From: an uncultured Bacteroidia bacterium
GTDB taxonomy: Bacteria > Bacteroidota > Bacteroidia > Bacteroidales > UBA932
DNA: 64,000 nt
Direction of reading: 5' to 3'
NCBI GenBank assembly: GCA_902779785.1
Contig: CACZDC010000003.1
Location: 19,674-83,673, forward strand
Shown here: positions 3,138 through 64,000 of the stretch, piece after piece
Position numbering within the stretch: the first letter of the stretch is position 1
How the letters are laid out: each line of letters begins with the position of its first letter
Notes under the pieces: generated by a model
What the model was told of the DNA's origin: nothing
Database searches by the model: none
The model's input: the letters and a program-made list of their open reading frames with translations, nothing else
Translations under genes and position numbers: made by a program

Positions 3138-3140
3138 GCT

Positions 3141-3551: not shown

Positions 3552-3553
3552 GT

Positions 3554-4342: not shown

Positions 4343-4394
4343 CGACGTGAGTCGCAAAAACAGCATTTAAACCGCCCGTGAGGGTCATTTACTT

Positions 4395-6436: not shown

Positions 6437-6446
6437 TTGACAGGAT

Positions 6447-46761: not shown

Positions 46762-47772
46762 TTATTTGAAAAGAACCTTGCAGACGGAAAGGTTATAGGT
46801 CTCATCCAGAGCCGCTTTCCCCTGGAAGAAAAGATAGATCTGCCCGTCATCATCCCGGAAAACCCCGGGGTGGCCACTCTCGGCCGCATTCCAAGAGCCC
46901 TCAGACCCGGAAGTAAAGCAAAGCCCGTCCGGGGGGATGCGGGTGAATTGCCTTCCGTCGCGGGAAACGGCAAGACCAATCTGCTGGTGTTCGTGGTTAT
47001 AGGCCCCGGCATAAAACATATACCATATTCCCTTATGCTCCACGACGGTCGGCGCTTCTACACAACTCATCTCCCAGGGATATTCCGGCTTCAGAAGCGG
47101 TCCGTCGACAGAGACTAGTTTCCATTTGTCGGGGCCATAATCGCTGCCGTAAGGAGCCTCTGCCATTCCCATTATCTGGTAGGTGGCGCTTGTATCCCTG
47201 GTCGCGAAAAGGAGGATGAGTTTGTCACCAAGAGGATAGACCTCCGCGTCTATAGAACGCTTGATCGACCAGTTGGTATCCGGAATAAAAACCGGCCTGT
47301 CACAGGTATTGACAAAGATGATTCCATCCTTGCTTACGGCGTGCCAGATATTGCTCATACCTTCGGTTCCTTCCCAGCCCATCTGGTAGAAAAGATGTAT
47401 TTCCCCGTCAAGGACTTTCACGCACGGAGCCACGGCGCCGAGGACCTTGTTACCCTGGGTATCCTTGAGGTCAAGGTCGCACAGTCGCGTCCAGTTCACA
47501 AGGTCGGTGCTGCGGGCAACCCCCGTATGCCAGCCGGAAAGGATAGGCGGAGTCTTGCCAGGATTAATGTCGGGGACGAAAGCCGACACCGAATAATACA
47601 TCAGGTACTCGTTGCCGAGCCGAATGACGGTAGGGTCTTTGGCGAACGGGACGGGAGAGCGTGACGTGTCCCCGTACTGCATCGGGAGTGGTTCCAGGAC
47701 CACACGCATAGGCTTATGGGCACAGGCGACAAGGCAAATCGCCGCCGTCAGGGAAAGAAAGATTTTATTCAT
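46762..47772 (-). CDS. GH43-like five-bladed beta-propeller glycosidase (lipoprotein)
   Basis: LVAC lipobox; AKDPTV (base), IDAEV (modulator), VEAPTV (acid), WYMFYAG..N, SGHPGVF. Confidence 0.75.
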   Translation of the reverse strand: MNKIFLSLTAAICLVACAHKPMRVVLEPLPMQYGDTSRSPVPFAKDPTVIRLGNEYLMYYSVSAFVPDINPGKTPPILSGWHTGVARSTDLVNWTRLCDLDLKDTQGNKVLGAVAPCVKVLDGEIHLFYQMGWEGTEGMSNIWHAVSKDGIIFVNTCDRPVFIPDTNWSIKRSIDAEVYPLGDKLILLFATRDTSATYQIMGMAEAPYGSDYGPDKWKLVSVDGPLLKPEYPWEMSCVEAPTVVEHKGIWYMFYAGAYNHEHQQIGLAVSRDGRQFTRIPPDGLCFTSGSEGSWNAAESGHPGVFRDDDGQIYLFFQGKAALDETYNLSVCKVLFK

Positions 47773-50700: not shown

Positions 50701-51671
50701 GTCCCCACCCAGAGGCCACCGCTGCGGTCCACACAAACGGCGCGGACCTGGTCGTCCGAGAGGGAAAACGGATCTTCCTCATTCATCTGGTAAACGGATG
50801 ATTCTCCGGAGATCAAGTCATAGGACCATACCCCTCGCGAAGTGGAGAGCCAGAAACGATGCCCGCCTTCCAGAAACACGTGATTGAGCGCAACCCCCTT
50901 GGGCAGCGGAAACAGACTCCGTACTGTCCGCGCCGACGGGCAGACCTCGGAAATGCCGTGCAAGGTACTTACGGCATAAAAACGGGTAGAATCGCCGCAG
51001 GCATAGAAAAGGCCCTCCACATCATCGCCCGCAAACCAAGAGGGACTGGCCTCCAGTTCTATGGCATGGCGGTTGGAAAAGGCTGCATCTGCGTGATAAA
51101 GGTTGCGGCGATATTTGGAAAGCCAGTAGCCGCCATCCCGGTCGCGAAGCAGCTTCCGGAAGGAGCAGGCCGCTTCCTTGCCGGCTCCTCGCAGATAATT
51201 GACCAGCGTTTTCTTTTGCTGATCGTAAATAAAGCAGCCGTCGAAGCCGGACAGGATATAGACAAGCCCGTCATCGTCGCAAGAAATGAATGTGACCTTA
51301 CCCGTTATACGCGTACCGTTGTCCGCCAGCAACTTCAGTGGCTCGAAGCGGTCCTCGTCACGAAGATAACAGGTGACCCCGGCATCGGTCCCTATCCACA
51401 GGTTTCCGTCACGGTCTTCTGCAATCTGGTGGATAAAGTCGGAAGCAAGACCGAGATCCTCACGGTACCATACCCGGAAACGCGTTCCATCATAGCGGTT
51501 CAAGCCCTTGAATGTACCGATCCATACAAAACCCTGGGAATCCTGGAAAATTTCATTGATTCCGTCATAAGAAATGTCGCTGTTACCTGTATGAAAACGA
51601 ATGAACTCCCTGCCGGCCAGGCTTGAGGGGCACAGCAGCAAGAGGAAAACGAGGATACGATATACTTTCAT
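47769..51671 (-). CDS. Hybrid two-component system (beta-propeller sensor-YYY-TM-HisKA-HATPase-REC-AraC)
   Basis: QDSQGFVWIGT..GLNRYDG repeats, HEIKTPLT H-box, G.GIGLSLAR, VEDN..., DISMPG, terminal IGY.VGF...SYF.KCF HTH. Confidence 0.95.
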   Translation of the reverse strand: MKVYRILVFLLLLCPSSLAGREFIRFHTGNSDISYDGINEIFQDSQGFVWIGTFKGLNRYDGTRFRVWYREDLGLASDFIHQIAEDRDGNLWIGTDAGVTCYLRDEDRFEPLKLLADNGTRITGKVTFISCDDDGLVYILSGFDGCFIYDQQKKTLVNYLRGAGKEAACSFRKLLRDRDGGYWLSKYRRNLYHADAAFSNRHAIELEASPSWFAGDDVEGLFYACGDSTRFYAVSTLHGISEVCPSARTVRSLFPLPKGVALNHVFLEGGHRFWLSTSRGVWSYDLISGESSVYQMNEEDPFSLSDDQVRAVCVDRSGGLWVGTKDGGVHYSGLDQRRFVKVYDKALRGAIVSGFASDGQDKVWVTTENNGLFYYSLSANALTAVNTGLHTALCSPCYLDGSLWFGSQDGLYRYDVARKSLRFYGNLRNKGVDDAKVYVVARAGEDDLYASTTRGVFRYNAEADRFESLDEFYGYFITSIVEDKDGRLWLSTFDDGVFHWDPAEREMVGHYCVADDGGLVSDKVCSMYVDASGNVWAVGFSSGFYRLDRSSNRFVRICRNNLAILPTNVFFRAVESGSGDLYLSSDSGLVRYVPETGEVGFYTELDGLLERKFTNSSLRLENGEMLFGSDNGFIRFRPAPVINRGILPVAVITKFQIGDQDVPQFNSSEKQVLKADQNTLSFEFAVLGNSFPATERLQCLLERHDKGWQDVSAGKRMTWFNLRPGNYRLRLRTAEVGGEWVEKQEALEIVVKPPFWGSIAGVFLIVLFSLLGLAAILAFSLWLIRRRQREEEDRFRKAKEEEMFRQKLDFFSHVIHEIKTPLTLIQTPLSQLKARSGHDAASEHDLSVMQRSADYLTSLVNELLDFVRIERKGYELHPVEVDLVDKLKMLVFSFADTAAERNISITMDPPAFTAGVSADVAALDKILNNILINALKYAESRITIDVKRDDENIYVAFSNDGPEIPDAYREAIFRPFTQYHRESGEISEGVGIGLSLARMLAQMHGGNLTLSDVPGETCFVLTLPRSEDEFGALPAEEAEDADVASGWRPSLLLVEDNRELTDYLAHALEERYSVLTANTVESALSIVKEQPVELVLTDISMPGKSGLDLCREIREDIEISHIPIIVVSARTSTQSKVEAMRLGADLFIEKPFDMEYLQASIHNILSRRGLMKRTLSRGMISQDIAVFGLPRREEEFLLRLDKLIMDHLSDEDVSNEFLADHLAVSQATLVRKVRRLLGTSPNNYVRNKRLAVAEAMMRESSGNSVSEIGYAVGFTNLSYFAKCFREQYGKTPSEYMESLL

Positions 51672-51680
51672 TGTTTATGC

Positions 51681-53708
51681 TTATCTGATAACGACTGCGC
51701 CATCTGGAGGCACCGTAACCGTTCCACGCTTCGGCGCGCCTTTCGGAAGCCGGACTTTATGCGCCTTCGCTTCTGTATTTACGAGGATGAAGGCGGGCTT
51801 CCCGTCCCTGTCCTTCCATTCTGCCCCCAGTACGGCGGTATCCTCCCAGAACCTCACGAAATCTCTTTTCGGATTCGCTCCGAGGGGCGTAAATTCGCGT
51901 ACGAATTCCCCGCCAAGAACGATGTCGTGTATCGTAGAACGGAAATCCATAAGCTTTCTCAGATAGGCAGCTTCCGCCGCGAATTTCGGGTCCGTGATGA
52001 TGAAAGCCCTAACCCAGCCGGGCTGGGCGCCGTAAAGCAAGGCCTTGGCAAAGGCATAGCGGTAGGTGCTGGGGACACCGACTTCCAACACCTCGGGAAG
52101 AGCGGTGAAGGCGCTGGTAATGATGCGGTCTGAATAAACCATAGGAAAAACCGGAACAATCTTCAATGGGCCAAGATGGTCGTTGTTCAGGCTGTTCACC
52201 ATCAGCATCATATCAAAGAGGTCGCTGTAACACTCTCCGTTTTCCTCCGTCGTCAAGATTCCGCCGGGGCGCAGATGCTCCCTGCGGATATCTCTAAGAA
52301 TGCGTTGGTAACCCTCCAGCCAGAAACTGCCTCCTCCGCGGGGGTGACCGTGGGACGGATTCCAGCAGGGTACCGGAACCGTACATCCCACCTGGTCGAT
52401 ATACACGCCGTCCACCCCGTATTCTGTCTGAATGCTCTCCACCAAGGAGCAGAGTTTGTCGTGCCACGTCTTCGTATAAGGGCAAGTGACGGAATTGACG
52501 ACACAAGAAGTACGGTAAATCTCCGTATAAAGGGTGCCGTCCATTTTTCGTGCGGATGCATCCGCACCGCCATCCCTGGCATAACTTTCCGAATGCGGAT
52601 CCCAGAGACGGCCGTTTATGTAGGGAGTAACGTGGACGCCCTTTCTATGAATCTGGGCGATCCGTTCTGCAAAACCAGGCCGTGCCGGAAGATATTCCGG
52701 ATAGTGGGTATCATATTCAATCTGGTGCCACCAGTACCAGTGGGCGCTCAGGTGCTCCCCCAGCAGGTCTGCCGCTTTGTCCAGGGCGTCAAACTCGTCT
52801 TCCACAGTTTTCAGACGCACCCAGCCCTCGGTCTGCAGCAACCAGGGAGACAGGGTGGAAAGACGGTTTTTGATTTTGCGTTCTTCTCCTCCCCAGGGAA
52901 GGGTATAAGAATATGGCTTGTACCAATGAGTGACTGCGTGTTCCCAGCCCGCACGGTCAAACCCTAGATTTATGGCAAAAGGAAGGGTAAACTTTCCTTC
53001 CGAGGTCCAGGCCTCGCTGGCGGGGACATCCAGAGAAAGGTGCATATCCACGTTGCCGTCCACCCCATAAACCTTCCGGCTGCCAGAGGAGTCCTCGGTC
53101 CCGAAGAACAGAGCCCCGTCCGCATTGTGGACCATCACAAACTGCATTGAGCTGGTGGGATAGACGGCTTTGTGTCCTGCGGCAGAGAGGGGTGCTTCCA
53201 AACCCCAGCCTTCAGGGATGATCACCTTGGCATTCTCCGGGTGGCAGAGCGTCAGTTCCGGATATTTTACATTCGTCACTATCCAGCCATCTGGAAGCTC
53301 CGTCTCCAAATTGAAATACAGTCGGTCACCGTCGTCCGGGAGACTCACGACGGCACGAAGAGGATAATTTCCCCGGGAATAGTCCAGACGGAGAAACCAG
53401 GTAAAACAATAGCGTTGTACGCCATTTTCGTATGTTTTTACGGCACCTTGGTACCGTGCCACCTTGGGACGGTAGACCGGAGTCTCCCCCATAGGCCCCA
53501 AAAGGGTGAGATCCCAGAAGGCGAAGGAGCCGCTGCCCGCCACCTTATGGCCGTCCATAACAATCTCTTCTATCGTAAACGTATCGCCGCTGTTGAAAAC
53601 TGCACGTATTTTACCGTTGTCAAGGATGCATTTCTCCTGAGCAAGAGCATTGTGCGGACACAGCATTAGAAAAGCTGCCGCTAAAATCAATAAAAGTATT
53701 CGTTTCAT
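51681..53708 (-). CDS. Exported DUF6259-like protein, putative TIM-barrel glycoside hydrolase
   Basis: Signal peptide ALA-Q; HWYWWHQIEYD..YPEYLP, PYINGRLWD, DGVYIDQ, TTEENGE. Confidence 0.6.
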   Translation of the reverse strand: MKRILLLILAAAFLMLCPHNALAQEKCILDNGKIRAVFNSGDTFTIEEIVMDGHKVAGSGSFAFWDLTLLGPMGETPVYRPKVARYQGAVKTYENGVQRYCFTWFLRLDYSRGNYPLRAVVSLPDDGDRLYFNLETELPDGWIVTNVKYPELTLCHPENAKVIIPEGWGLEAPLSAAGHKAVYPTSSMQFVMVHNADGALFFGTEDSSGSRKVYGVDGNVDMHLSLDVPASEAWTSEGKFTLPFAINLGFDRAGWEHAVTHWYKPYSYTLPWGGEERKIKNRLSTLSPWLLQTEGWVRLKTVEDEFDALDKAADLLGEHLSAHWYWWHQIEYDTHYPEYLPARPGFAERIAQIHRKGVHVTPYINGRLWDPHSESYARDGGADASARKMDGTLYTEIYRTSCVVNSVTCPYTKTWHDKLCSLVESIQTEYGVDGVYIDQVGCTVPVPCWNPSHGHPRGGGSFWLEGYQRILRDIRREHLRPGGILTTEENGECYSDLFDMMLMVNSLNNDHLGPLKIVPVFPMVYSDRIITSAFTALPEVLEVGVPSTYRYAFAKALLYGAQPGWVRAFIITDPKFAAEAAYLRKLMDFRSTIHDIVLGGEFVREFTPLGANPKRDFVRFWEDTAVLGAEWKDRDGKPAFILVNTEAKAHKVRLPKGAPKRGTVTVPPDGAVVIR

Positions 53709-55621
53709 AGCGTTCTGAGCCACACGCTCATCTGGGTGATTCCCTCCTGGGCGTGACGGAAATAAGGAATAAACATAAGGTGGCGGTCCGTGTCCATCAA
53801 GCTGACGGAAGCGGGATCTTGATTCTGTTCTTCAAAATGATCCTCCGGGGATATTGTACAGGTACGGATATCCTTTTCGTTTTCCGGAAGGACGGCGCAA
53901 TAGACGATGGGGCCGCGCTCTACCACAATACGTCCCTTGACCGCTTCTACCCTGTCGTCGGCCTTCACGAAACGCAGCGGCATTTCAAAGCGGACATCCA
54001 CCACGTCTCCGTCTTTCCACTTCCGGTCAAGGACAGCATAACCTTTTTCCGTTGCATAGTTGACCACTTCTCCGTTTACAAAGATGACCGGCAGGGAAGG
54101 CTCTGCGTCCAGGTATGTGTATAAGGTACCGGGAACGGGATGGCCCTGGGCCCAGCCGGGAATACGGATGCGCAGAGCCGTGGCTTTGAGCGGAGCCTTC
54201 TCAAGCGTCAGCCGGACGTCACCGTCGTAAGGATAGACTGTTTCGCAGCGCAATTCCACCGGCTCACCCGCCGCGGTTTCAAAGGCGCTTTGCCCCGATG
54301 TAAACAAATTGACATAAAGGCTGTTATTCCCCAGGGCATAGACATAGCCCGGCAGGGAAAGAAAAATCCGAGCCAGATTGGTAGGACAGCAGCAAGTTTC
54401 GAACCACGGGAGGCGATGGCTTCTCCGAAGGCGGGACTTCGGCCTGATCTTCGCCCATTCCTTTTCCCAATCGAAGGTATAAGGACTGCACTGCAGGACA
54501 TTGGCATAAAAGAATTTCATTCCGTCGTCAGAAATGCCGTGCAGTACATTGTTATAGAGCGTTCGCTCGAAAATGTCGAAGTAACGGCTCTCGCCCGTAA
54601 GGCAGAACAGCCGGTAGTTCCACATACAACTGCCCACCCCGGCGCAGGTCTCGCAATGTGTTTCCTCATCAGGCAGAAAATACGCTTCGCCGAAGCGTTC
54701 CTTCTCCCGGTAACTTCCCAGACCGCCAGTAAGATACATCTTCCGACCCGTCACATCATTCCAAAGGGAATCGGTGGCTGTGCGGTAGGCCTTATCGCCG
54801 CAAAGGACAGCGTTGTCTACAATCGCCATAAAGCGATAAACGCCGCGGACGGCGTGACCGAGAGCTTCGTACTGCTGAGCCACAGGCTTGGGGTCATCCC
54901 CGCAATAGCCCCGGCATTCCAACAGGAAATGCGAAAGATCGAGATAGCGCCTGTCGCCAGTAGCCCGGTATAATTTCACCAGGGCCAGTTCAATTTCCTC
55001 GTGGCCGGAGGCGATCTTTCGCCCCGGAATCAAGAAGGTATTGTAGATAAGATCCGCGTTGCGTTTGGCGATATCCAGGAAAGCGGTTTTTCCAGTGGCG
55101 TAATAGTGTGCCACTGCCGCCTCGTACATATGCCCGACATTGTAAAGCTCGTGGCTGGTGGCAATATCGTTCCAGCGCTCCTGCCCCGCCTTGGGATCCA
55201 CGTCCAGGCCGCCCGAAGTACGGATGGTATAAAGATACCCGTCCGGTTCCTGCGCTGCGCCCACCAGGGCGATTAGGCTGTCCATATACTGATCGAGCGC
55301 CGCATCATAGCGGGTAGAAAGACTGTATGATGCCGCCTCCATCACCTTGAACACATCGGAATCGTCATAGCGGAGTCCGGTAAACTTCGTAGTATCAAGG
55401 CCTGCGGCACGCGCAAAATTGGCGATGCGCCCGGTTTCCTCGCATTTGCGAAAGGCGAAAGGAATAGTGTTTTCCCGCACAACACGCTCCCTTTCAGCGA
55501 ACAGACCGTCCGTAAAACGAACGTGAGAGAGCGAAACACCCTGGATAGGATAGTCCTGCGACTGTTTTTGGGAGCACGAGGCCAGAATGGCTACAAGGGC
55601 AAAAAGAACTGTCTTTTTCAT
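53705..55621 (-). CDS. GH127 family glycoside hydrolase (beta-L-arabinofuranosidase-like), lipoprotein
   Basis: LASC lipobox; DSDVFK.MEA, HELYN.GH, SGHEEIELALVKLYR, GHAVR, ETCA, CCPTN, RIPGW, RGPIVYC. Confidence 0.88.
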   Translation of the reverse strand: MKKTVLFALVAILASCSQKQSQDYPIQGVSLSHVRFTDGLFAERERVVRENTIPFAFRKCEETGRIANFARAAGLDTTKFTGLRYDDSDVFKVMEAASYSLSTRYDAALDQYMDSLIALVGAAQEPDGYLYTIRTSGGLDVDPKAGQERWNDIATSHELYNVGHMYEAAVAHYYATGKTAFLDIAKRNADLIYNTFLIPGRKIASGHEEIELALVKLYRATGDRRYLDLSHFLLECRGYCGDDPKPVAQQYEALGHAVRGVYRFMAIVDNAVLCGDKAYRTATDSLWNDVTGRKMYLTGGLGSYREKERFGEAYFLPDEETHCETCAGVGSCMWNYRLFCLTGESRYFDIFERTLYNNVLHGISDDGMKFFYANVLQCSPYTFDWEKEWAKIRPKSRLRRSHRLPWFETCCCPTNLARIFLSLPGYVYALGNNSLYVNLFTSGQSAFETAAGEPVELRCETVYPYDGDVRLTLEKAPLKATALRIRIPGWAQGHPVPGTLYTYLDAEPSLPVIFVNGEVVNYATEKGYAVLDRKWKDGDVVDVRFEMPLRFVKADDRVEAVKGRIVVERGPIVYCAVLPENEKDIRTCTISPEDHFEEQNQDPASVSLMDTDRHLMFIPYFRHAQEGITQMSVWLRTL

Positions 55622-55622
55622 A

Positions 55623-57608
55623 TTATAATCTAGGCCAAATGGTTTCCCAAATCAGATCCATAAAGTTCCGCTTACCCTTGTTAAGCTGGGCGGTCACCGC
55701 GATGACGGCATTCTTCTCCGGGATTACGATACCAAACTGTCCGAAAGCGCCGTCCAGCCTGAACGCATTGTGGGTGCACACCCACATCTGGTATCCATAA
55801 CCCGCATTCCAGTCATTCCGTGGGCCGTCGGACTGGTAAATCTGCGGTGAACTCATCGCCTCCACCCATTCCGGCCGGAGCAATTGCCGACCGTCCCATT
55901 TCCCTTTGTTCAATAAAAACTGGGCGGTCTTGGCAAGGGTTTCCGTTGTGGTATAAAGTCCCCAGCCCCCTGCGGTAACGCCGTCGGCACTCTCCTCCCA
56001 TTCCCAGTTGCAGATGCCCAGCGGACGGAACAGGCGGATGTTCAAATACTCGGAAAGTTTCATTCCTGTACAGCGCTGGACGATTTCAGACAAGAGATAG
56101 GTATTCATCGAATTGTAATGATAGCGGGCCCCTGGTTCAAAAGCCATCGGGACTGCAAGAACTTCCCTGGCGGGATGCTGCCATTCCAGCGACCGGACCT
56201 TATTGATTCCGTCTGTCCCAAGTCCGGACGACATCGTCAGAAGATCCCGAATGCACAATTTTTCCAGCCACTCTCCGCGCTCGGAAGGGAGCTCGTCGTC
56301 GTGAAAGAAAGAGATTACCTTGTCATCAATTCCAAATAGAGACTCCTGTACCGCAAAGCCCACAGCAATGGCGGTAAAAGTCTTGGAAGCAGACCACATT
56401 ACGTGCCTCTCATCGGGTCTGTGCCCCGTATCATACTTTTCGTAAATCTTCTTTCCGTCCTTCAGAATCATCATAGAATGGATTTCATCCGTTCCAGCGA
56501 ACATCGTCACTGCCCTCCAGACGGAATCAGCAGCCTCATCGATGCAACCAAAGTCATCGGCAGACTCAAGATGGATGTCCGGGCTGTCCGGCCGGCGGGA
56601 GATAACTTCCCGGCAGGGCGAAACGCTGACCACCTGGAAATCCCTGTCCAATACGAATACCTGATAACGCTGTCCTCCGTCACTGACCCGAAGCACGATA
56701 TGCCCCACGCCTGCCACGGCTGACTTCCAAAGCGCGCTCCCGCTGCCTTTTTTACCACTGTCCGTCGTCACATAAAGCTTGTGAGCGCAGGGGAGCTGTG
56801 GATCGGCGATACGCCGGAGCGTCAGTGGGCAAGGCTGTTTATGGTCGAAGCCGGCGACGAGCATCACTTCCGGGCGCATCTTCCACAGAAAATCGGAAGT
56901 GGTCGCGTCCGGGACACCGTGATGGTTCAGTTTCATCGCGGTAACCGGGCCGACGAGCTCAGCCACCTGGCTTTCGAAACTCCGGTATTCCACCTTATCG
57001 TTGGCTTTGATTTCCGGAGAAACTGCTTTCCCGTCCTTGAATTGCTTCACATAGAAGTTGCTTCCGGAAATATCCCCGCCCGTATAATAGGAGAAGGGGC
57101 CATAGCGCAGCAGGATGGCGCAGCTGAGCATATTCTCGTCAAAGTTTTCGGGGTCCTCTGGAGACAAGGGGCGGCAAAGGGTTCCGTTTTCCGTAGCTAT
57201 CCATCCATTCCCGGCAATATTGAAGATGTCAAATTCCGACACTGTAGCGTGAAGTGGAATGAACTGATTATGACTGCCCGGAGTAAAACTGTTCCTGTCT
57301 ATTTTCCGGCCAATCTCGAAATTCGCCTCAACCGCAGTGGCGCCACCGGTATGGTCCTTATGGAAATGGGTCAGAAAGAAATAATCCAGCCCGTCAGGCC
57401 TGGGGGAAAAGTGGCGTATGTATCGGGAGACGACTTCGGCCTTGGGATCCCCGGCATCGATAAGCATAGTCGTGCCGTCGGGCATCACTACAAAGGTATT
57501 CTCCCCGTAGTCCGAGGCAATCATATGGATATCCAGCGTCCCCTCCTTCCAGAAGGGAAAGACTGACAATGCGGCCGCAAGAAGGCCGGATACAAGAAAA
57601 TGGATCAT
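55623..57608 (-). CDS. Fusion of an MBL-fold (ComEC/Pce-like) hydrolase and a beta-lactamase-fold serine hydrolase
   Basis: N-half: MLIDAG, THFHKDH, GGD, NHHG. C-half: WSASKT (SxxK), LLTMSSG, PGARYHYN, YGYQMW, DGAFGQ. Confidence 0.82.
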   Translation of the reverse strand: MIHFLVSGLLAAALSVFPFWKEGTLDIHMIASDYGENTFVVMPDGTTMLIDAGDPKAEVVSRYIRHFSPRPDGLDYFFLTHFHKDHTGGATAVEANFEIGRKIDRNSFTPGSHNQFIPLHATVSEFDIFNIAGNGWIATENGTLCRPLSPEDPENFDENMLSCAILLRYGPFSYYTGGDISGSNFYVKQFKDGKAVSPEIKANDKVEYRSFESQVAELVGPVTAMKLNHHGVPDATTSDFLWKMRPEVMLVAGFDHKQPCPLTLRRIADPQLPCAHKLYVTTDSGKKGSGSALWKSAVAGVGHIVLRVSDGGQRYQVFVLDRDFQVVSVSPCREVISRRPDSPDIHLESADDFGCIDEAADSVWRAVTMFAGTDEIHSMMILKDGKKIYEKYDTGHRPDERHVMWSASKTFTAIAVGFAVQESLFGIDDKVISFFHDDELPSERGEWLEKLCIRDLLTMSSGLGTDGINKVRSLEWQHPAREVLAVPMAFEPGARYHYNSMNTYLLSEIVQRCTGMKLSEYLNIRLFRPLGICNWEWEESADGVTAGGWGLYTTTETLAKTAQFLLNKGKWDGRQLLRPEWVEAMSSPQIYQSDGPRNDWNAGYGYQMWVCTHNAFRLDGAFGQFGIVIPEKNAVIAVTAQLNKGKRNFMDLIWETIWPRL

Positions 57609-57615
57609 CGTCAAA

Positions 57616-58563
57616 TTAGAAGTTACGTTCTTTCAGGCAGGCTTCCAACTGTTCCTTGCTCATAGGAAGTTTTCCCTTATAATTGCGAACCCACTTCACG
57701 AAGCGCTTGTTCATCTCATCACTCCAGGCACTGTCAATTTCTCCCGCCGTATAGACGTGAGTCTTAATCATCTCCTCTCCGAATTCGTCAGTGAGTTTGG
57801 TAAATTCCGAGGTCAGGACAATATGCTCCAACAGGTGAGGCGGGATGAAGAGGACGGCCCCAGGCTTGGCCAGGACGGCGTCGCCGGGCAGTACGGTAGC
57901 GTGTCCGATGCGGATGGGCACATTATAATTGGTCAGGATAGTCTGACGCATATAGGACGGATCATAGTTCTTCATCCATATATTCAGACCGGGGATGCGG
58001 CGAAGGCGCTCAATATCCCGGATATTGCCGTAGGTAATCAGGCCGTTTCCGGTTTTTTCGAACACCCCGCTGCCCAGATTCGAGCCCACAGCCGTGCCCA
58101 GGAACTCCTTGTTATAGGTATCGGCCACATACACGTCACCCTTGACCAGAGAATTGATGACCCAGGATACCGTGCGCTTCTGCTGCCACATCCTGCCTTC
58201 CTTCTTGCCCTGTTCGATGATTTCGTCTTCCAGGTCAGGACGCAGCGGCATAAACTGGGCCGTAACGGCACGTCCCACCATTACGGCGTCCTCGGTGTCG
58301 TGCAGCAACATCCAGTCACCCTCATATTGATTCTGGTAGCCAAGTTTCATCAACTCCGCCCAACACTCTTCAATGGTCACGTGCTTGAGTCTCTCCAGAA
58401 GATCGTCCGGGACTTTCGGACGTCCGTCAGGGAAACGTTCCCCTGTCCACTTAGCCGTCAGGGCCTTGATGTATTCCGGAGAACCTGCAATAGACTGGGC
58501 AAGCGCCCGGCCGGGCAGCAGCGCAAATGCGGCTGCGCACACAATCGTTACAATCCTTTTCAT
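57616..58563 (-). CDS. RraA / HMG-aldolase-like protein with a signal peptide
   Basis: GRAVTAQF.P, GDVYVAD, GSNLG, GNIRD, IG.ATVLPGD.V, FIP; N-terminus MKRIVTIVCAAAFALLPGRALA-Q. Confidence 0.78.
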   Translation of the reverse strand: MKRIVTIVCAAAFALLPGRALAQSIAGSPEYIKALTAKWTGERFPDGRPKVPDDLLERLKHVTIEECWAELMKLGYQNQYEGDWMLLHDTEDAVMVGRAVTAQFMPLRPDLEDEIIEQGKKEGRMWQQKRTVSWVINSLVKGDVYVADTYNKEFLGTAVGSNLGSGVFEKTGNGLITYGNIRDIERLRRIPGLNIWMKNYDPSYMRQTILTNYNVPIRIGHATVLPGDAVLAKPGAVLFIPPHLLEHIVLTSEFTKLTDEFGEEMIKTHVYTAGEIDSAWSDEMNKRFVKWVRNYKGKLPMSKEQLEACLKERNF

Positions 58564-61500
58564 ATGTTTTTCCATACAATTTCCATCGTCGTTTTTCCGA
58601 TTTTCACCGCCTGGCGGGCGGGAGAATTTTCCAGCACTTTAACTTCGGCGGCCTTGTCATATAGCAGGGCGAAAGCGCAGGAGGCGTTTTTAGGACTGCG
58701 TCCGTGATCTACATACAGATCCATCAACTCCCCTTCCCCTTCGCTGAAGGCCGTTCCCTTAAACGGGAAATATTTTACGCGTTCCGCATCGGCCCTGTAG
58801 CGCTGGTCCACGCAGGTTACAACCTGCACGTCCCTCTCGCAACAGATTCCCGCCGTCAGGCAGACGACACCTCCGCCGAAAAAGAACCAGGCCTTGCGCG
58901 CACACAGTCCATCCCGCTGATACAGCATACCGATGGCCATATCGTTGCCATACATCCGGCAGAGCGGGTGCGGAGCATCGTTATATACAGGGTTTTCGTT
59001 GTCCTCGCAAGGCGGAGTCGCACTTACCGGGCCTCCGTCATCCCAGGAGGTAACACCGGGGATATGCTTCCAATTCCACAGTGAAGCGATATTCTCGTAT
59101 TCATCCCCGCGAGATCGGGTAAGCAGGCAGCCGTCGGCGGAAAAATAGCCCTGCGCGTTCTCTCCGTTCGTACACTCATAGCCCTTGACAAAACGGGACT
59201 GCATCCGCAGGGACGCATACCAGCCATCCCCTCGGTAAACGGCAAAATCGGAACAGGGATAGTAAATCCCCCCACTCCGCTGGGGAATCTCCACGCCAAG
59301 CCGCTCCGCAGCCTGAAGGGCACAAATCGCCTTACCGCGCTGGGCATTGACAAACAGCTGCCGTCCGCAGGCGTTCATATCAAAGAAACCCTGATAAACC
59401 ATCTGTCCCAGGCCTTTGGAGACATAATCTTTCAAAAATAACTTCTGTCTGTCGGAGAAAGCCAGGGGCGTATCTTCCAGGACAGAGGCCCACCAGGAAA
59501 GGGAAACAGCATAAGACAGACCGTAGTTGCCGAACTGCAACTGGCGCCCGTGCTGTTGGAAGGACCAGTCCGTCCTCACTCCGGCACCCGGCGCTCCAAA
59601 GCTGGCTTCACCCACAAGGACTGCCTGCGCTTCACGGACGGACACATCATCCCCGCCAAGCAAGCCGCGCATCAGGACAATCCCGGCAAGCCACACACGG
59701 TTCTGTCCGCTGCGGCCGATTTTGGCCGCGGACAGCACTTTCAGGCAAGCCTCCAGTTCATCGTCGGTGAATTCCTCTTTCAGCAGAAGGAAAGCCGGCG
59801 CCAGCAGGCGCGGGCAACCTATCTCATTGTGCCACCAGTTGGGACAGACGGGCGTATTCCCGCACCAGAAACGAAGGGCTTGCAAGGCCGCATCACGGGC
59901 AGCGGCATCTCCGGTCCGGCGGTAACGGATGGCTAGCCGCTGCAGGCGGAAACAATGGATGGCAGGGGCCCATACGCCCCGGGAATCGTCCCGGTAATCG
60001 ATATCGGTAAAACTGCCGTCTTCCTTCTGGAGGGAAAGGAGCTTCGCAGCCTCGGCATCCTCCAACGGGACTTGCAGGAAGAGTTCCCGCATATCACAAC
60101 TGTTCTCGAGGCCCTCTTTGGAGATGAGCGCATACTCCGCCGCCTTCCCGGGGTCGGTCTCTACGGCGAGAGTCGCTGCATTGATGGCGGCAATGATCCG
60201 GCTCGCCAGAGGAGACCCCCTGAACTTTCGATCTTCCAATTGACATTCATAGAGCGAGAGCGGATTCCGGAAGGACGTTTTCGTCAGGCGGGGCCACCAG
60301 TCAAAACGTGTCGCAGCTTCCGCATCCGGCAGGCTGATGTGTCCGCTGCCGCCCTGGCCATAATCCACATAGGGGTACCACTTCGCGTCCGGACGACGGG
60401 CGTAACCCAGCGACTGATAATAATCCTCCACTGGTTTGCCATAGAAATCTCTGTTCAGACGCTTCTGAACACGGGTGCCGCCCAAGAGGCCAATGCAATA
60501 ATTGCGTCCTGATGGATGGGGGCTGGAGAAAGTGAGACCGGGGGTATTTTCCGCCGCCCAGGGGCTTTCACATTCGACATTGCCCTCCGTCTCCACATTC
60601 CAGAAAATGGTATTGGCTCCGGTCCATCCGTGACCGGTGCCTGCGTTTCCGTGGTCCGTCACGCGGAAGCCCGCGGAATTGTAACAACAGTCGAAAAGTG
60701 TCCCGGTACTCCAGCGCTGGTGCGGACCGGCACCGGTACGCATATTTGGCCCCTGGCACTGGGTATAGACATTCGGCCCTCCCGCCTTGGTATTGGTTCC
60801 GAAACCGATGGCCGACTTTTCACAATAGCATTTTTTTATCAGACAGAGTTCCGCCCCTTCCAGGGCAAAACCATAACGCCGGGCCATCGTGGGCAGGGAA
60901 ACGGGATTGACAAAAGAGCAATCTTCCACGGTGACGCAGCGGGTTCCGGAGGAAAGCATAGTCGCAGCAAAGCCGAAGTGCGTCACGGTGACTTCCCTGG
61001 CAAAACAATCTTCACAGGCAAGGAAATACATTCCATACCAGGCATGTTCCTCGTCGATTTCCACCCCATCCTCGTTCCTGACCGAAGGGTCATAGTCAGA
61101 ATCCAGAGTGAGCTTTTCTATCCCGCAGCCGCGTACACGCGTGAGCCTGTACTTGCAGATATTACCTCCGCCGTAGTTTTTATCCAGGGACTGCACCAGC
61201 GGGGCGTCAAAATAGAGCCGATTCCCGCGGATATCGGTCACGCGGCGCGACCAGCGCATCATCATATTCCCGTCGCTCCATTGCCTGACAGGACCCTTTT
61301 CCCTGCCGTTGGAGGCAATCCTGTCCATTCCCACGTCGGAAAGCCAGGCCGCATTGTGCGGACGCTCAACCATCACTTCGTCTCCAATGGAAAAGATACC
61401 GGAATCTTCCACCTCTACCCAAAACCGGCCCACCGGGCAATAGTCCTCCGCCACGGCAACCTTTTCCTTGATGGACGGTGAAGAAGCATGGGGAGAAAGG

Positions 61501-62048
61501 AGATAGAGGAAATGCTTCCCGAAGGAAGAACGTCCCTCTACGCCGACGACGGCCATCTTCTTCATTTTGAACCTTTTCCCCGCGATATTGCTGTATTTCT
61601 CCGGATCGTCTTTCGCTTTATAGGAAGCGCAATGACCGATGACGACTGCCGGACGCTGTATCCTCCCGCCGCACTTGAGGACGGTTCCCTCGCGGCTCTC
61701 TCCCCTCAGGATCACCTTATCCTTATCCAAGAACAGGATGCCCCCTACGTTGTAAACGCCGTTTTTGAGAAGGACAGTACCCCCACCCGCAGCTTTAGCA
61801 GCCCGGTCGATGGCAGCCTGAAGAATCGACGTTGTATCAGGATAGATTTTGCTCCTCAACAGCTCGGCCACTTTTTCCGGAGATAAGGTCTCTGTCACGG
61901 GATAATCCGGATAAGTAAGGTCACCGTGGCCATACCCGACCGTACTGAAGTCCGGAATTATATCGACACTGAGCGTATCCGTCTGTGCCGGCGAGGGAAG
62001 TCCCGCCAGTAGCATCACTCCGAGAAGAATGGCTTTGAAACGCATCAT
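58560..62048 (-). CDS. Fusion of an N-terminal right-handed beta-helix (pectate-lyase-like) domain and a C-terminal PL8 (chondroitin AC/hyaluronate lyase-like) domain
   Basis: Signal peptide; IPDFSTVGY, LQAAID..GGGTVLLKNGVY, VILRGE. PL8 part: NWWHNEIGCP, GQNRVW, DWSFQQHGRQLQFGNYG, CGRQ, NGENAQG, W.W..IPGVT. Confidence 0.8.
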   Translation of the reverse strand: MMRFKAILLGVMLLAGLPSPAQTDTLSVDIIPDFSTVGYGHGDLTYPDYPVTETLSPEKVAELLRSKIYPDTTSILQAAIDRAAKAAGGGTVLLKNGVYNVGGILFLDKDKVILRGESREGTVLKCGGRIQRPAVVIGHCASYKAKDDPEKYSNIAGKRFKMKKMAVVGVEGRSSFGKHFLYLLSPHASSPSIKEKVAVAEDYCPVGRFWVEVEDSGIFSIGDEVMVERPHNAAWLSDVGMDRIASNGREKGPVRQWSDGNMMMRWSRRVTDIRGNRLYFDAPLVQSLDKNYGGGNICKYRLTRVRGCGIEKLTLDSDYDPSVRNEDGVEIDEEHAWYGMYFLACEDCFAREVTVTHFGFAATMLSSGTRCVTVEDCSFVNPVSLPTMARRYGFALEGAELCLIKKCYCEKSAIGFGTNTKAGGPNVYTQCQGPNMRTGAGPHQRWSTGTLFDCCYNSAGFRVTDHGNAGTGHGWTGANTIFWNVETEGNVECESPWAAENTPGLTFSSPHPSGRNYCIGLLGGTRVQKRLNRDFYGKPVEDYYQSLGYARRPDAKWYPYVDYGQGGSGHISLPDAEAATRFDWWPRLTKTSFRNPLSLYECQLEDRKFRGSPLASRIIAAINAATLAVETDPGKAAEYALISKEGLENSCDMRELFLQVPLEDAEAAKLLSLQKEDGSFTDIDYRDDSRGVWAPAIHCFRLQRLAIRYRRTGDAAARDAALQALRFWCGNTPVCPNWWHNEIGCPRLLAPAFLLLKEEFTDDELEACLKVLSAAKIGRSGQNRVWLAGIVLMRGLLGGDDVSVREAQAVLVGEASFGAPGAGVRTDWSFQQHGRQLQFGNYGLSYAVSLSWWASVLEDTPLAFSDRQKLFLKDYVSKGLGQMVYQGFFDMNACGRQLFVNAQRGKAICALQAAERLGVEIPQRSGGIYYPCSDFAVYRGDGWYASLRMQSRFVKGYECTNGENAQGYFSADGCLLTRSRGDEYENIASLWNWKHIPGVTSWDDGGPVSATPPCEDNENPVYNDAPHPLCRMYGNDMAIGMLYQRDGLCARKAWFFFGGGVVCLTAGICCERDVQVVTCVDQRYRADAERVKYFPFKGTAFSEGEGELMDLYVDHGRSPKNASCAFALLYDKAAEVKVLENSPARQAVKIGKTTMEIVWKNI

Positions 62049-63493
62049 CAATTTCTATAGTCAAGGGGCGGCTTACGGTCGCCTACCAGTGATTCATACA
62101 CAAAGTCCTTGCCTCGCGCTTTCAGGAATTCTTCACGTGCCGCCTTGAGCAGTTCCGGCTTTTTGAAGAGTTCCAGAGCCGTAAGATAATAAATCTTTCC
62201 CACATTCACTACGGCTTTTGTTCCGATTGTCGTTCCGCCCACCGCTACCTGTTGCCAGGAATGCCCGCCGCCCCCTAAGGTACAGCAGGCCACATAGAGT
62301 TTGGCCGTAGGTGCAACGAAGGACACGCTGCCGGCATCCGAACTGGAGCCGAGCGGGCGGTTAGGCCTGACTTCCGGGGCTACCTCGGCGAAATTTCCGA
62401 AATCCTCCGGGTCTCTGCCGGTATTCTTCAGTATTTCCCGGCAGAATTCTTTTTCCGCTTCACTGAGAATCACGCCCCCCACCTCGTTTTGCTTTTTGCA
62501 GACGATATCGCAAAGGACGGAATTCGCGAGAACGGGATAATTACTGTTGATGAGTTCGTAGCTCATCGTCGTTCCGGTGCCAAGCGCGGCCCCCTCGGCG
62601 GCCTTGATGACCCGCTCAGTCACCGCCTTCATATACTCCACTTCTGGATGGCGGATATAATAACGCACAACCGACAGGTCCGGGACGACATTGGGTGCTG
62701 GGTTGGTCCGCGTTACTGCATAATGGAGACGAGTTTCCGGCCGCACGTGCTCTCGCATCAGATTAGTCATATAGTCCAAGGCTTCCACGGCATCGAAGGC
62801 GGAACGGCCGTTCCATGGCTGGGCACCGGCGTGCGCGCCCTTCCCGTGAAAAGTAAAATCGATGGTCATTGTAGCGCTGCCTGAATTGAGATTGGTCTGG
62901 TTCCTTGTTGCAGGATGCCAGATAAATGCGGCGTCCAGACCGTCGAACACTCCGTCCCGAACCATATAGTTTTTGGCACCGCCGCCCTCTTCGGCGGGAC
63001 AGCCGAAGAGTTTCACTGTCCCCAGATGACCCTGTGCCAGCCATTTTGAAATGGCAAGAGCCGCCGCGAGACTGCCCGTTCCCAGCAAATTATGTCCGCA
63101 ACCGTGCCCATATCCTTCTTCCACCACCGGCTGACGGTAAGGGACAGCGGCCTGAGAAAGCCCAGGGAGAGCATCATACTCCGCGAGGATGCCGATAATC
63201 GGTTTTCCCTCACCGTAAGTCGCGACAAAGGCCGTAGGAATGCCGGCTACCCCCTTCTCTACGCTGAAACCGTTTTCTTCGAGTATGGAAATGAGCAGCG
63301 TGCTGCTCTTATACTCCTGATAGCCAGGCTCCGCAAAGGCGTGAATCGCCTTGGAAACGCTGTCCAGTAGCTCGAAATTGGTCTCAAGCCACTTGAGGCC
63401 AACGTCGTCGCGGGACTTGGGCCTGGCCGGAAGTATCGTGGATACGACAAATAGCGCAAGTGCGCAAAGGACGATATTAGTTATTTTCATCAT
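62048..63493 (-). CDS. M20D amidohydrolase, AbgB-like, with a signal peptide
   Basis: EYDALPG, GHGCGHN, PAEEGG, WHP, G..AHA...PW.GRSA.DA, SSD.G.VS; start 63493 (ATGA overlap) or 63499. Confidence 0.85.
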   Translation of the reverse strand: MMKITNIVLCALALFVVSTILPARPKSRDDVGLKWLETNFELLDSVSKAIHAFAEPGYQEYKSSTLLISILEENGFSVEKGVAGIPTAFVATYGEGKPIIGILAEYDALPGLSQAAVPYRQPVVEEGYGHGCGHNLLGTGSLAAALAISKWLAQGHLGTVKLFGCPAEEGGGAKNYMVRDGVFDGLDAAFIWHPATRNQTNLNSGSATMTIDFTFHGKGAHAGAQPWNGRSAFDAVEALDYMTNLMREHVRPETRLHYAVTRTNPAPNVVPDLSVVRYYIRHPEVEYMKAVTERVIKAAEGAALGTGTTMSYELINSNYPVLANSVLCDIVCKKQNEVGGVILSEAEKEFCREILKNTGRDPEDFGNFAEVAPEVRPNRPLGSSSDAGSVSFVAPTAKLYVACCTLGGGGHSWQQVAVGGTTIGTKAVVNVGKIYYLTALELFKKPELLKAAREEFLKARGKDFVYESLVGDRKPPLDYRN

Positions 63494-64000
63494 AGACATT
63501 CTCCATTACCGGAAGCCTTGCGGTCCTGAAGCTGGCTCAGGTACAGCGATTCCGGATGGTCAAAACTGGAAATCGAGAAGCGGGGCCACCAGCTGCACGT
63601 CGCCTCTGCGTCCGCACAGGGAAGTTGGACGTGCGACTTTCCGCCGTCGCCATATTCCACCCGGGACGGATACCACTGTGGATCGGGACGGGAAGGGAAC
63701 CCTGCCTTTACATAGGTATCTTCATTCTTTCCTGCAAAGTAATTAACACGTTCGCCACCTAGAAGACCGATACAATAATTGCGTCCGGATGCGTAGGAAC
63801 TGACAAAGGACAGGGAGGGAGTGTTCTCCATTGCCCAAGGGCTTTCACACTCGATTTTTCCTTCTGTCTCCACGTTCCAGAATACGGTATTGGCCCCGAT
63901 CCATCCGTGTCCGGATCCTGAATTGCCGTGGTCCGTACATCGAAAGCCGGCGGAATTGTAACAACAGTCATAAAGCGTACCGGTACTCCACAACATATGC
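63490..64000 (-). CDS. C-terminal part of a beta-helix protein paralogous to the N-domain of the PL8 fusion; 5' end outside the window
   Basis: Frame is open to the edge (H-MLWSTGTLYDCCYNSAGFR...); aligns residue-for-residue with HQRWSTGTLFDCCYNSAGFR... at about 60225-60722. Confidence 0.85.
   Translation of the reverse strand, partial: HMLWSTGTLYDCCYNSAGFRCTDHGNSGSGHGWIGANTVFWNVETEGKIECESPWAMENTPSLSFVSSYASGRNYCIGLLGGERVNYFAGKNEDTYVKAGFPSRPDPQWYPSRVEYGDGGKSHVQLPCADAEATCSWWPRFSISSFDHPESLYLSQLQDRKASGNGECL

Follow-up and report, generated by a model that had tools for sequence, protein, structure and literature searches.

The window analyzed here, a 64,000-nucleotide stretch of DNA from an uncultured Bacteroidia bacterium, contains on its minus strand one uninterrupted open reading frame (58560..62051; stop codon, 58560-58562) in which a β-helix module is joined to a PL8 lyase module. 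Read from a TTG at 62051, the gene encodes 1,163 amino acids; an ATG at 62048 yields 1,162 amino acids, and this ATG-start gene call (58560-62048) is the single ORF that an earlier sequence-only reading had delineated. The exact 1,162-amino-acid fused protein is present in the public protein collection, and all motifs quoted in that reading were found in it. An N-terminal signal peptide (MMMRFKAILLGVMLLAGLPSPAQ; 61983..62051, minus strand) was read from the sequence. As this signal peptide appears to be of type I, with no lipobox cysteine recognizable in it, export of the fusion to the periplasm is predicted. The remaining segments, all on the minus strand, are the β-helix module (residues ~28 to 608; 60228..61970), delimited by an AlphaFold2 model, 245 homologues, invariant alignment columns, and NF058554 matches; the fusion junction (K609-S613; 60213..60227), placed by alignments and crossed without indels by DNA and RNA contigs; the PL8 α/α-toroid (residues 614 to 917, including NWWHNEIG; 59301..60212), defined by Pfam, the 1hm2 alignment, the model, and Foldseek; and a shortened PL8 β-sandwich (residues 927 to 1163, with NGEN; 58563..59273), assigned by Pfam Lyase_8 and the model.

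On the same strand, a gene for an M20 amidohydrolase with a signal peptide (62048..63499) separates the fused gene from a stand-alone β-helix paralogue (P0016), whose 3′ part (63490..64000) runs past the window end. P0016 (598 amino acids, 52% identical to the β-helix module) bears a lipobox and probably works as an enzyme at the cell surface; lipoboxes (LLFSAC/LLLSAC) set the paralogues apart from the fused copy. The rest of the operon-like gene string (46762..58575, minus strand) encodes a secreted RraA-like protein (57616-58575), a protein combining MBL and β-lactamase folds (55623-57614), a GH127 (53705-55621), a DUF6259 protein (51681-53723), a hybrid two-component sensor (47769-51671), and a GH43-like protein (46762-47772). 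Further upstream, related contigs carry a SusD gene and lipoprotein β-helix paralogues. GH88/GH105 and sulfatase genes were not found in the visible part of the locus. With its GH127, GH43-like, M20, RraA-like, and β-lactamase-fold genes, the locus does not resemble a classical glycosaminoglycan locus.

The C-terminal module (~550 amino acids) is a PL8 member, as had been proposed: Pfam Lyase_8 (1.5e-34) and Lyase_8_N (9.5e-23) matched far above chance, and the best solved relative was chondroitinase AC (1cb8/1hm2; 1.3e-40). The AlphaFold2 model (pLDDT 94.8) gave a Foldseek TM of 0.81 to 1cb8 when normalized by query length and of 0.67 when normalized by target length. Counting along the alignment, N175, H225, Y234, R288, and E371 of 1hm2 correspond to N784 (codon 59700-59702, in GQNRVW, residues 782 to 787), H834 (59550-59552) and Y843 (59523-59525), both in QQHGRQLQFGNYG (832 to 844), R897 (59361-59363, in CGRQ, 895 to 898), and E959 (59175-59177, in GYECTNGEN, 957 to 965), all on the minus strand. 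The catalytic Asn/His/Tyr/Arg/Glu set is therefore intact, as the sequence-only reading had suggested; however, its glutamate is E959 of GYE and not that of NGEN, which is E964 and corresponds to E376 of chondroitinase AC. Both glutamates are conserved, and the NWW motif also aligns with chondroitinase AC. The expected shortening of the C-terminal β region was borne out as well: Lyase_8 matched only at profile positions 3 to 162 of 254, Pfam detected no Lyase_8_C (PF02884) in the fused protein, so a separate C-terminal PL8 domain is absent, and chain 1cb8_A has 678 amino acids. Compared to the Pedobacter (Flavobacterium) heparinus chondroitin AC lyase, with which it shares the α/α-toroid and β-sandwich, the module is ~21% identical and ~130 to 150 residues shorter, its super-sandwich is truncated, and it sits behind a putative second catalytic module; against the NCBIfam chondroitinase-AC equivalog it scored 158.8 bits, with a cut-off of 1,000 bits.

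The N-terminal module (~585 amino acids) was modeled by AlphaFold2 as a right-handed β-helix (pLDDT 94.1), the fold anticipated from the sequence. Pfam searches of this part gave no match over threshold, and no close solved structure was found in the PDB (Foldseek TM of at most 0.37). A search gave 245 homologues, and most family members are stand-alone secreted proteins of 500 to 620 amino acids or carry additional spacers, BACON modules, or sorting domains. The family conserves the motifs IIPDFSTVGY (residues 31 to 40), IDEEHAW, ARRYGF, GPHQRWSTGTLFD (442 to 454), GTGHGW, and QLxDR; the most conserved (ARRYGF, GPHxRW..D, and GTGHGW) all lie in the C-terminal half. NCBIfam model NF058554 (BT3328_fam, PL29) was matched by 52 of 61 relatives at E<0.01 (best E, 1.3e-16), and each of the other β-helix enzyme models by at most 4. 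These PL29 matches were collinear (model positions ~320 to 633 of 840) and confined to the first ~310 residues of the β-helix proteins, while the C-terminal half with its three conserved motifs did not align to the model; the window's own β-helix reached 17.8 bits (E, 7.5e-4), far under the model cut-off of 1,100 bits. BT3328 of Bacteroides thetaiotaomicron, a surface hyaluronan/chondroitin sulfate endo-lyase, founded PL29, the nearest characterized family. Its catalytic module is similar in size, and it is a lipoprotein with a spacer and a β-helix, the plan followed by the lipoprotein paralogues of the locus, in which a spacer of ~300 amino acids precedes the β-helix (PMC6994673). However, the similarity comes from sequence profiles of the N-terminal half only, the spacer regions are unmatched, and the fused copy is no lipoprotein. 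The family is thus distantly related to PL29 over its N-terminal ~310 residues. The label "unclassified" holds as far as Pfam families and close structures are concerned but overlooks this kinship, because of which the suggestion that the β-helix may found a new PL/GH family has become uncertain.

Taking these data together, we favor, though not firmly, the view that the fused gene encodes a genuine enzyme with two catalytic modules, belonging to a variable polysaccharide utilization locus (PUL) of uncultured rumen Bacteroidales and acting on a uronate glycan through both β-helix and PL8; the β-helix may itself be a lyase. A serious but distinctly less probable alternative is that the β-helix of a real fusion belongs to the glycoside hydrolases or to some other class of non-lyase glycanases, and that hydrolase and lyase act on different linkages of one heteropolysaccharide. 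At its N terminus the β-helix has a PF12708-type cap (rhamnogalacturonase A/epimerase), a kind frequent among glycoside hydrolases, and GH110, GH141 (BT_1002), and GH28 were found besides capsule lyases among the low-TM Foldseek matches. The conserved E312, D333, E334, and D454 could form an acid/base pair, GH95 and GH2 are neighbors of the family in other phyla, and the C-terminal half has motifs with no match in the PL29 model. However, PL29 lyases are the only characterized family with specific sequence similarity, and the conserved R391, R392, Y393, H444, and H474 would suit carboxylate binding and β-elimination. The family is also repeatedly paired with lyase-type α/α-toroid proteins: PF05426 proteins are neighbors at 8 to 9 of 78 loci, and one member (P0112) is fused to such a protein. 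Moreover, the best Foldseek matches were capsule lyases and depolymerases; phage enzymes such as the Klebsiella K1 lyase (7w1c) and K64-1 S2-4 (9k4a) share the fold and the N-terminal cap, a fold-level likeness only (TM 0.26 to 0.37, 9 to 13% identity), and the β-helix module, unlike these tailspikes, has no trimerization or particle-binding module.

It is improbable that the β-helix is a noncatalytic substrate-binding or scaffolding module that feeds the polymer to the PL8 active site. β-Helices can serve as binding modules, and the catalytic residues of this family are known as sequence candidates alone; however, the fused copy retains all 33 columns that are invariant in a 61-sequence alignment, and most family members are built like enzymes. 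Furthermore, dN/dS was 0.11 to 0.135 in β-helix, linker, and PL8 alike at dS 0.5 to 0.76; the fusion is under purifying selection, which acts on the β-helix as strongly as on PL8. The gene is also expressed, as metatranscriptome contigs cross the junction with the frame retained.

Even less probable is a PL8 half that was captured recently and is inactive or being lost, an idea suggested by the missing part of the β-sandwich and the missing C-terminal domain. Syntenic loci of sister strains (L001, L007, and L008) lack PL8 and carry an unfused β-helix gene of 615 to 617 amino acids directly followed by the RraA-like gene; in another (L006), the junction is kept but the region corresponding to 58688-60145 of the window has been deleted. 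Nevertheless, the PL8 part showed dN/dS of 0.12 to 0.13 at dS 0.55 to 0.60 across three species-level lineages, its model is confident, and none of the five catalytic residues has been lost, nor has the NWW motif. Its closest relatives are stand-alone proteins of 559 to 620 amino acids; dozens of stand-alone proteins share the compact form as a trait of the clade, and one of these (P0137) adjoins GH88 and a hybrid two-component sensor. We give almost no credence to an assembly, chimera, or frameshift artefact: the window is metagenome derived, a G5 run sits at the junction, and related contigs differ in how the neighboring genes are fused or split, but the 90% cluster of the protein holds at least 8 distinct 1,162-amino-acid variants with the same junction (NCBI, ENA, and Logan), three ENA assemblies have the same gene context, the fusion recurs in independent metagenome contigs of bovine, goat, and gut origin, contigs from independent studies (X2 from goat, X4, and X7) cross the junction without indels, and two additional species representatives in GTDB (L009 and L010) encode 1,164- and 1,166-amino-acid fusions with the same junction, the frame being kept through ~12 to 17% amino acid divergence.

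In line with the sequence-only reading, PL8 is not a regular fusion partner of the β-helix family: the best 120 of the 245 relatives all lack a PL8 domain, and PL8 was present at 2 of 78 GTDB loci (L009 and L010), both with the same fusion. Since PL8 is missing from the other 76, the partnership is not general. Among 1.84 billion representatives, the sole candidate-looking match (P0271) was rejected as its N-terminal part is unrelated. The term "unprecedented" therefore fits this particular pair but not PL8 fusions as such, which include GH92-PL8, PL8-GH88, PL8-heparinase II/III, and PL8-β-lactamase fold. The first three resemble the present protein, as do two-domain alginate lyases (PMC9781882, PMC11671496), in having two modules per chain for one class of acidic polysaccharide; here, however, the partner is a PL29-related β-helix, and the searches found the pair in one small rumen Bacteroidales clade only. 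In B. thetaiotaomicron, PL29 and PL8 cooperate as separate proteins (PMC6994673), which makes the pairing less surprising than claimed. Its chondroitin/dermatan/hyaluronan locus (BT3324-BT3350) comprises PL29, PL8, SusC/D, and a hybrid two-component sensor, and surface BT3328 and periplasmic PL8 lyases act in series (PMC6994673, PMC9067506). The rumen locus likewise has surface-type β-helix paralogues, PL8, SusD, and a hybrid sensor; in contrast, one of its β-helix copies is covalently joined to PL8, and its visible part has GH127, DUF6259, GH43-like, M20, RraA-like, and β-lactamase-fold genes in the place of sulfatases and GH88. The fusion is thus an unusual, lineage-restricted variant of a known theme.

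Homology of the β-helix to stand-alone proteins stops at QLEDR608, and that of PL8 begins at P614. The comparisons show a single origin: a stand-alone PL8 gene became attached, in frame, behind the 3′ end of the β-helix gene at the cost of a few terminal residues of each partner; selection has since maintained the fusion in a few related species, with renewed loss in some strains. In the proposed pathway, the surface lipoprotein paralogues of the locus would probably make the first cuts. Within the putatively periplasmic fused enzyme, the β-helix would most likely cleave uronic-acid-containing oligosaccharides along its long groove, and the compact PL8 may catalyze β-elimination at the same or neighboring glucuronate linkages. 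The modules would thereby cooperate, and the earlier idea that they attack a complex uronate polymer in sequence is reasonable, if hypothetical. We infer that the substrate is probably a nonsulfated, decorated glucuronate-containing glycan rather than a classical sulfated glycosaminoglycan. The fusion hints at the role of a large uncharacterized family of β-helix enzymes.

The minus strand of the window carries an uninterrupted ORF at 58560..62051, comprising 1163 codons from a TTG start; the ATG one codon 3′ of the TTG yields a 1162-aa protein, and an identical sequence was present in the public protein collection. The sequence-only reading had described this gene as a fusion of a beta-helix domain with a compact PL8 lyase. 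All motifs on which it relied were found at the expected positions in the ORF, and the fusion itself was confirmed; its interpretation as a whole was supported in part. The 90%-identity cluster that includes the fused protein consists of 19 sequences, and at least 8 distinct 1162-aa variants were recovered from NCBI, ENA, and Logan assemblies. The 1162-aa gene was detected in three independent ENA assemblies with unchanged gene order. Contigs from other studies and hosts (X2 from goat gut, X4 from a gut metagenome, and the metagenome contig X7) crossed the junction without an indel at 92 to 97% identity, and X4 (10.3 kb) was collinear with the entire fusion gene. Two more GTDB species representatives, the rumen MAGs RGIG3510 (L009) and RUG11938 (L010), encode the fusion as proteins of 1164 and 1166 aa, with a junction that is the same except for three conservative substitutions (R611K, S617R, and I619L). 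A rumen metatranscriptome contig (X25) spans the junction with zero mismatches over 60091-60310, and a second one (X26) covers 60149-60746, where the frame stayed open after its 27 best-supported substitutions had been applied. If the G5 run at the junction slipped by 1 nt, a stop would follow 17 codons on, according to hand translation; no indel in this run was found in any public contig. An assembly or frameshift artefact, the explanation named beforehand as fatal to the fusion, was thus excluded by the independent DNA and RNA contigs across the junction, the cluster look-up, and the related loci. Variants of 641 aa result from a 1.46-kb deletion rather than a frameshift. Comparison of the window with L009 or L010 gave dN/dS values of 0.11 to 0.135 for the beta-helix, 0.13 for the linker, and 0.12 to 0.13 for the PL8 module (dS, 0.5 to 0.76). 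Thus, both halves are under purifying selection within one reading frame. The fusion gene is real, selected, expressed, and lineage-restricted.

The C-terminal 510 residues of the ORF contain both PL8 Pfam domains. Lyase_8_N (PF08124) matched with 81.2 bits (9.5e-23; cut-off, 24) and Lyase_8 (PF02278) with 120.1 bits (1.5e-34; cut-off, 27), the latter at profile positions 3-162 of 254 only; the central super-sandwich domain is present yet shortened. The best solved relative was chondroitinase AC of Pedobacter heparinus (1cb8/1hm2; 1.3e-40). Counting along the alignment placed N175, H225, Y234, R288, and E371 of 1hm2 at N784, H834, Y843, R897, and E959 of the ORF, and all five catalytic residues were invariant in 113 aligned PL8 sequences. 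The catalytic set is therefore intact, as had been proposed, but the catalytic Glu had been assigned to the NGEN motif: the equivalent of E371 is the E of GYE, and E376 of chondroitinase AC is matched by the E of NGEN, with both counterparts conserved. The AlphaFold2 model of residues 612-1163 (pLDDT, 94.8) showed 14 helices followed by a sandwich and matched 1cb8 in Foldseek with a TM score of 0.81 on query length and 0.67 on target length. Solved PL8 lyases have a C-terminal beta-sandwich domain, Lyase_8_C. The Pfam scan of the fused protein gave no match to this domain (PF02884), and the protein ends ~24 residues past the last stretch alignable to 1cb8. Since the nearest stand-alone PL8 relatives likewise lack Lyase_8_C, its absence is a clade trait and no bar to PL8 membership. 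The partial Lyase_8 coverage, the missing Lyase_8_C, and the TM score of 0.67 on target length bear out the earlier description of a compact PL8 with its catalytic residues in place. As judged by its fold, its domains, and its catalytic residues, the C-terminal half is a PL8, and its clade is a compact one that lacks the C-terminal domain. It is not a chondroitinase AC orthologue, because the NCBIfam equivalog model NF043001 scored 158.8 bits for the whole protein (163.7 for the PL8 module alone) against a cut-off of 1000. In another rumen bacterium, the neighbors of a compact-clade member (P0137) are a hybrid sensor and an unsaturated glucuronyl hydrolase of GH88, which supports a genuine lyase function.

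No Pfam match above threshold was obtained in the first 610 residues. The AlphaFold2 model of this module displayed a right-handed beta-helix (pLDDT, 94.1), and the N-terminal cap motif DF..G.G..D.T.AIQ.AID of the PF12708 clan (pectate-lyase-3-like superfamily) is present. PF12708 itself scored a sub-threshold 11.2 bits on the window copy (cut-off, 27) and is recorded for several relatives. Searched against PDB, the family profile matched 7chu (1.5e-10) and mannuronan C5-epimerases (about 3e-6) through the cap; the PDB sequence and profile searches found nothing beyond these ~70 residues. An NCBIfam scan of 61 family members was more informative. The model NF058554 ("BT3328 family hyaluronic acid endo-lyase") was matched by 52 of them (best, 1.3e-16), whereas other beta-helix enzyme models matched at most 4 of the 61 and by the cap only. 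The NF058554 matches were collinear and always lay at model positions ~320-633 of 840, a span that represents the initial ~310 residues of the BT3328 catalytic module, which follows a ~300-aa spacer (PMC6994673). BT3328 is the founding PL29 member, a surface endo-lyase on chondroitin sulfate and hyaluronan that supplies the PL8 lyases in the B. thetaiotaomicron periplasm (PMC6994673, PMC9067506). Because the window module reached only 17.8 bits (E 7.5e-4; cut-off, 1100) and its C-terminal half, which contains the most conserved motifs of the family (ARRYGF, GPHxRWSTGTL.D, and GTGHGW), did not align to the model, we regard the module as PL29-related, but distantly so, and as a candidate member of PL29 at most. 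BT3328 is a surface lipoprotein with its ~300-aa N-terminal spacer ahead of the catalytic module (PMC6994673), whereas the signal peptide of the fused copy lacks a lipobox and no such spacer was found.

The PDB matches of the beta-helix model in Foldseek were phage capsule lyases and depolymerases, followed by GH110, GH141, and GH28. All of these are likenesses at the fold level only (TM scores of at most 0.37 against PDB and at most 0.44 against viral predicted structures). A close likeness to GH110, GH141, and GH28 structures was not observed (TM scores, 0.20 to 0.31), and GH28-type NCBIfam models gave only cap-region matches at E>1e-3. The mode of action of the N-terminal half is probably closest to that of a beta-helix of the PL29 or capsule-depolymerase type, but it may instead have hydrolase chemistry.

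A word-indexed search detected 245 relatives of the beta-helix module. Most are stand-alone, secreted proteins of 500 to 620 aa; in others, an N-terminal extension of ~300 aa, BACON modules, or type-9 sorting domains are present. Among GTDB genomes, family members were recorded in Bacteroidota, Verrucomicrobiota, Planctomycetota, Latescibacterota, Armatimonadota, Kiritimatiellia, Binatia, Myxococcales, and one Paenibacillaceae MAG. Within about 8 kb of the family gene, 8 to 9 of 78 GTDB loci from several phyla contained a gene for a PF05426 "alginate lyase"-type alpha/alpha-toroid protein (L021, L024, L034, L046, L070, L072, L073, and L078, from Bacteroidota, Planctomycetota, and Verrucomicrobiota), and one family member (P0112) is fused to a PF05426-type protein. 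These neighbors and the P0112 fusion support a genuine lyase function, and they show a recurrent pairing of the family with lyase folds of the toroid type, to which PL8 belongs. GH95 and GH2 were the next commonest neighbors. PL8 stands beside the family in this rumen clade only and was not found at the other 76 GTDB loci. Likewise, no other beta-helix/PL8 fusion was found among the best 120 relatives of either half, so that the architecture search, which also covered 1.84 billion representatives, recovered the pair nowhere outside this rumen clade. Its distribution is too narrow to yield covariation between the domains, and an alignment in which both families were mixed came out misaligned. 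A single candidate from the full-length search of these representatives, P0271 (1146 aa), was rejected, as its N-terminal 560 aa are unrelated. In this protein, a PL8 of the compact clade (50% identical) follows the unrelated ~560-aa region, which has no Pfam match; the compact clade has been captured more than once as a C-terminal module. PL8 fusions with other partners were also found here, namely, with GH92, GH88, a heparinase II/III-type domain, and a beta-lactamase-fold domain. For alginate, lyases with two modules have been described (PMC9781882, PMC11671496); our literature search found no report of a PL29-type/PL8 fusion.

The related genes and loci allowed us to trace how the fusion could have arisen. 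Stand-alone beta-helix relatives end ~5 to 10 residues past the conserved QLxDR motif, and one of them (P0001) terminates with ...QLESRKATEKKCKK. Stand-alone PL8 relatives start with M(L/I)H L(L/F)(F/Y) IALSLVGSIIQQCASLTLDVE. In the fused protein, QLEDR608-KFRG is directly followed by S613-PLASRIIAAINAATLAVE. Comparison of these termini with the junction shows that each fusion partner lost a few terminal residues only. According to the structural model, the former PL8 N-terminus is the first helix of the toroid domain. The nearest PL8 relatives (68 to 72% identical) are stand-alone genes. In L002, one of these genes lies directly upstream of a homologue (5630-7759, 62% identical) of the window's protein with a metallo-beta-lactamase (MBL) fold and a beta-lactamase fold. 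The syntenic contigs L001, L007, and L008 from related bacteria have an unfused beta-helix gene for 615 to 617 aa, followed ~10 to 30 nt on by the RraA-like gene, with no PL8. L006, which encodes the 641-aa form, retains the junction together with ~20 initial PL8 residues but has since lost the segment corresponding to 58688-60145. In the simplest history, the beta-helix gene would have captured a PL8 gene once, in frame and at its 3′ end; the fusion would then have been kept in a few species-level lineages and secondarily lost in some strains.

The deletion of the PL8 module (58688-60145) was one of three precise internal deletions between the window and L006, L007, or L008. The others removed most of the M20 gene (62272-63060) and the 3′ part of the GH127 gene together with DUF6259 (51729-55052). 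The M20 deletion, with a 7-nt GCGGCGG microhomology at its joint, is common to all three contigs and the GH127/DUF6259 deletion to L006 and L008; in other respects the contigs are unlike one another. The accessory genes of the locus act as a modular set that varies among strains. A further variable stretch was observed in the core of the beta-helix (window 60700-61750, residues ~100 to 450 of the fused protein). Compared with L003-L005, the window is 98 to 100% identical over residues 1 to 100, 100% over ~450 to 650, and 92 to 100% from ~850, whereas the core shows only 64 to 80% identity, and the window allele of the core is nearer to that of L009, another species. This mosaicism suggests recombination or diversifying exchange of a putative substrate-binding face.

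The fusion gene is part of a tight string of minus-strand genes, comprising a beta-helix paralogue at the window end (P0016), an M20 amidohydrolase, the fusion, a secreted RraA-like protein, the MBL and beta-lactamase-fold protein, GH127, DUF6259, a hybrid two-component sensor, and a GH43-like protein. P0016 (598 aa) is 52% identical and has an LLLSAC lipobox. In related contigs the upstream continuation contains two lipoprotein paralogues of 837 to 851 aa (2650-5163 and 6678-9221 in L007; 1207-3762 and 3945-6479 in L009), small unknown lipoproteins, and a SusD gene. The N-terminal extensions of these paralogues (~300 aa) are 61 to 64% identical to one another and precede the beta-helix module. 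This layout is the one described for BT3328, and the paralogues of 844 to 851 aa in L007 and L009 have a lipobox as well, but the extension did not match the BT3328 model. The locus is a polysaccharide utilization locus (PUL), and three or four of its genes encode beta-helix family proteins. Its onset is abrupt at about 46.7 kb; positions 1-46600 of the window contain housekeeping genes (MreB/MreC, PBP2, RodA, PBP1a, D-Ala-D-Ala ligase, topoisomerase I, IspD, and peptidases M24, U32, and M16). Since the signal peptide of the fused copy lacks a lipobox, the usual division of labor would have the lipoprotein paralogues cut the polymer at the surface and the fusion act on imported fragments in the periplasm.

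The substrate is the weakest part of our account. No sulfatase and no GH88/GH105 was found in the visible part of the locus, which does encode GH127, the amidohydrolase, and the beta-lactamase-fold protein, whose nearest named relative is acyl-transferring, at a score below the cut-off. We therefore favor a non-sulfated, decorated glucuronate-containing glycan over a classical sulfated glycosaminoglycan. Several further features of the locus were observed. The MBL and beta-lactamase-fold protein is a secreted 663-aa protein encoded after the fusion (55623-57614, minus strand), in which the MBL fold is joined to a class-C beta-lactamase fold; among NCBIfam models, "3-succinylated cholic acid synthase" came nearest, at 1.4e-73 but under the cut-off. 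Elsewhere, a PL8 is fused to a beta-lactamase-fold domain (P0144). The PL8/beta-lactamase-fold link is a recurrent one and perhaps serves the removal of acyl decorations. The RraA/aldolase-like protein (319 aa; 57616-58575, minus strand) and the M20 amidohydrolase (62048-63499, minus strand) both have signal peptides, and their placement inside a PUL is unusual; it may point to a target glycan with substituents other than sugars. GH127 and DUF6259, which are separate in the window (51681-55621, minus strand), form one 1302-aa protein in L001 (14811-18719), another fusion/fission in the same locus; GH127 is missing from L009. A literature search found no mention of DUF6259.

The conserved, expressed PL8 fusion constitutes direct genomic evidence for a family acting on uronic-acid-containing glycans, and the recurrent neighborhood with lyase-type alpha/alpha-toroid proteins points to such glycans too. 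A more specific reading, which we consider rather doubtful as a whole, is that the module represents a widespread unnamed family, PL29-related yet distinct, with its active site in the unmatched C-terminal half, and that the fusion marks a non-sulfated, acyl- or amino-acid-decorated glucuronate glycan as the substrate. The family to which this reading refers ranges over Bacteroidota, Verrucomicrobiota, Planctomycetota, Latescibacterota, and other phyla. If it is true, the substrate, a microbial exopolysaccharide or plant glycan, would be one on which none of the characterized PL8 and PL29 enzymes is known to act.

In the well-studied Bacteroides system the two enzyme types cooperate as separate proteins, whereas here they are joined in one chain. 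Because they were already known to cooperate, the fusion, restricted to a few uncultured rumen lineages, extends a known theme and overturns none. In natural populations, the locus shows how PULs evolve: genes fuse in frame, alleles become mosaic, and segments are precisely deleted. The compact PL8 clade without the C-terminal domain bears on the minimal PL8 catalytic unit, and hundreds of beta-helix family members in polysaccharide degraders of many phyla are named just "hypothetical protein." The fusion is of value mainly as a pointer to the function of two groups, this large beta-helix family and a minimal PL8 clade, and it provides a concrete protein for expression and assay.
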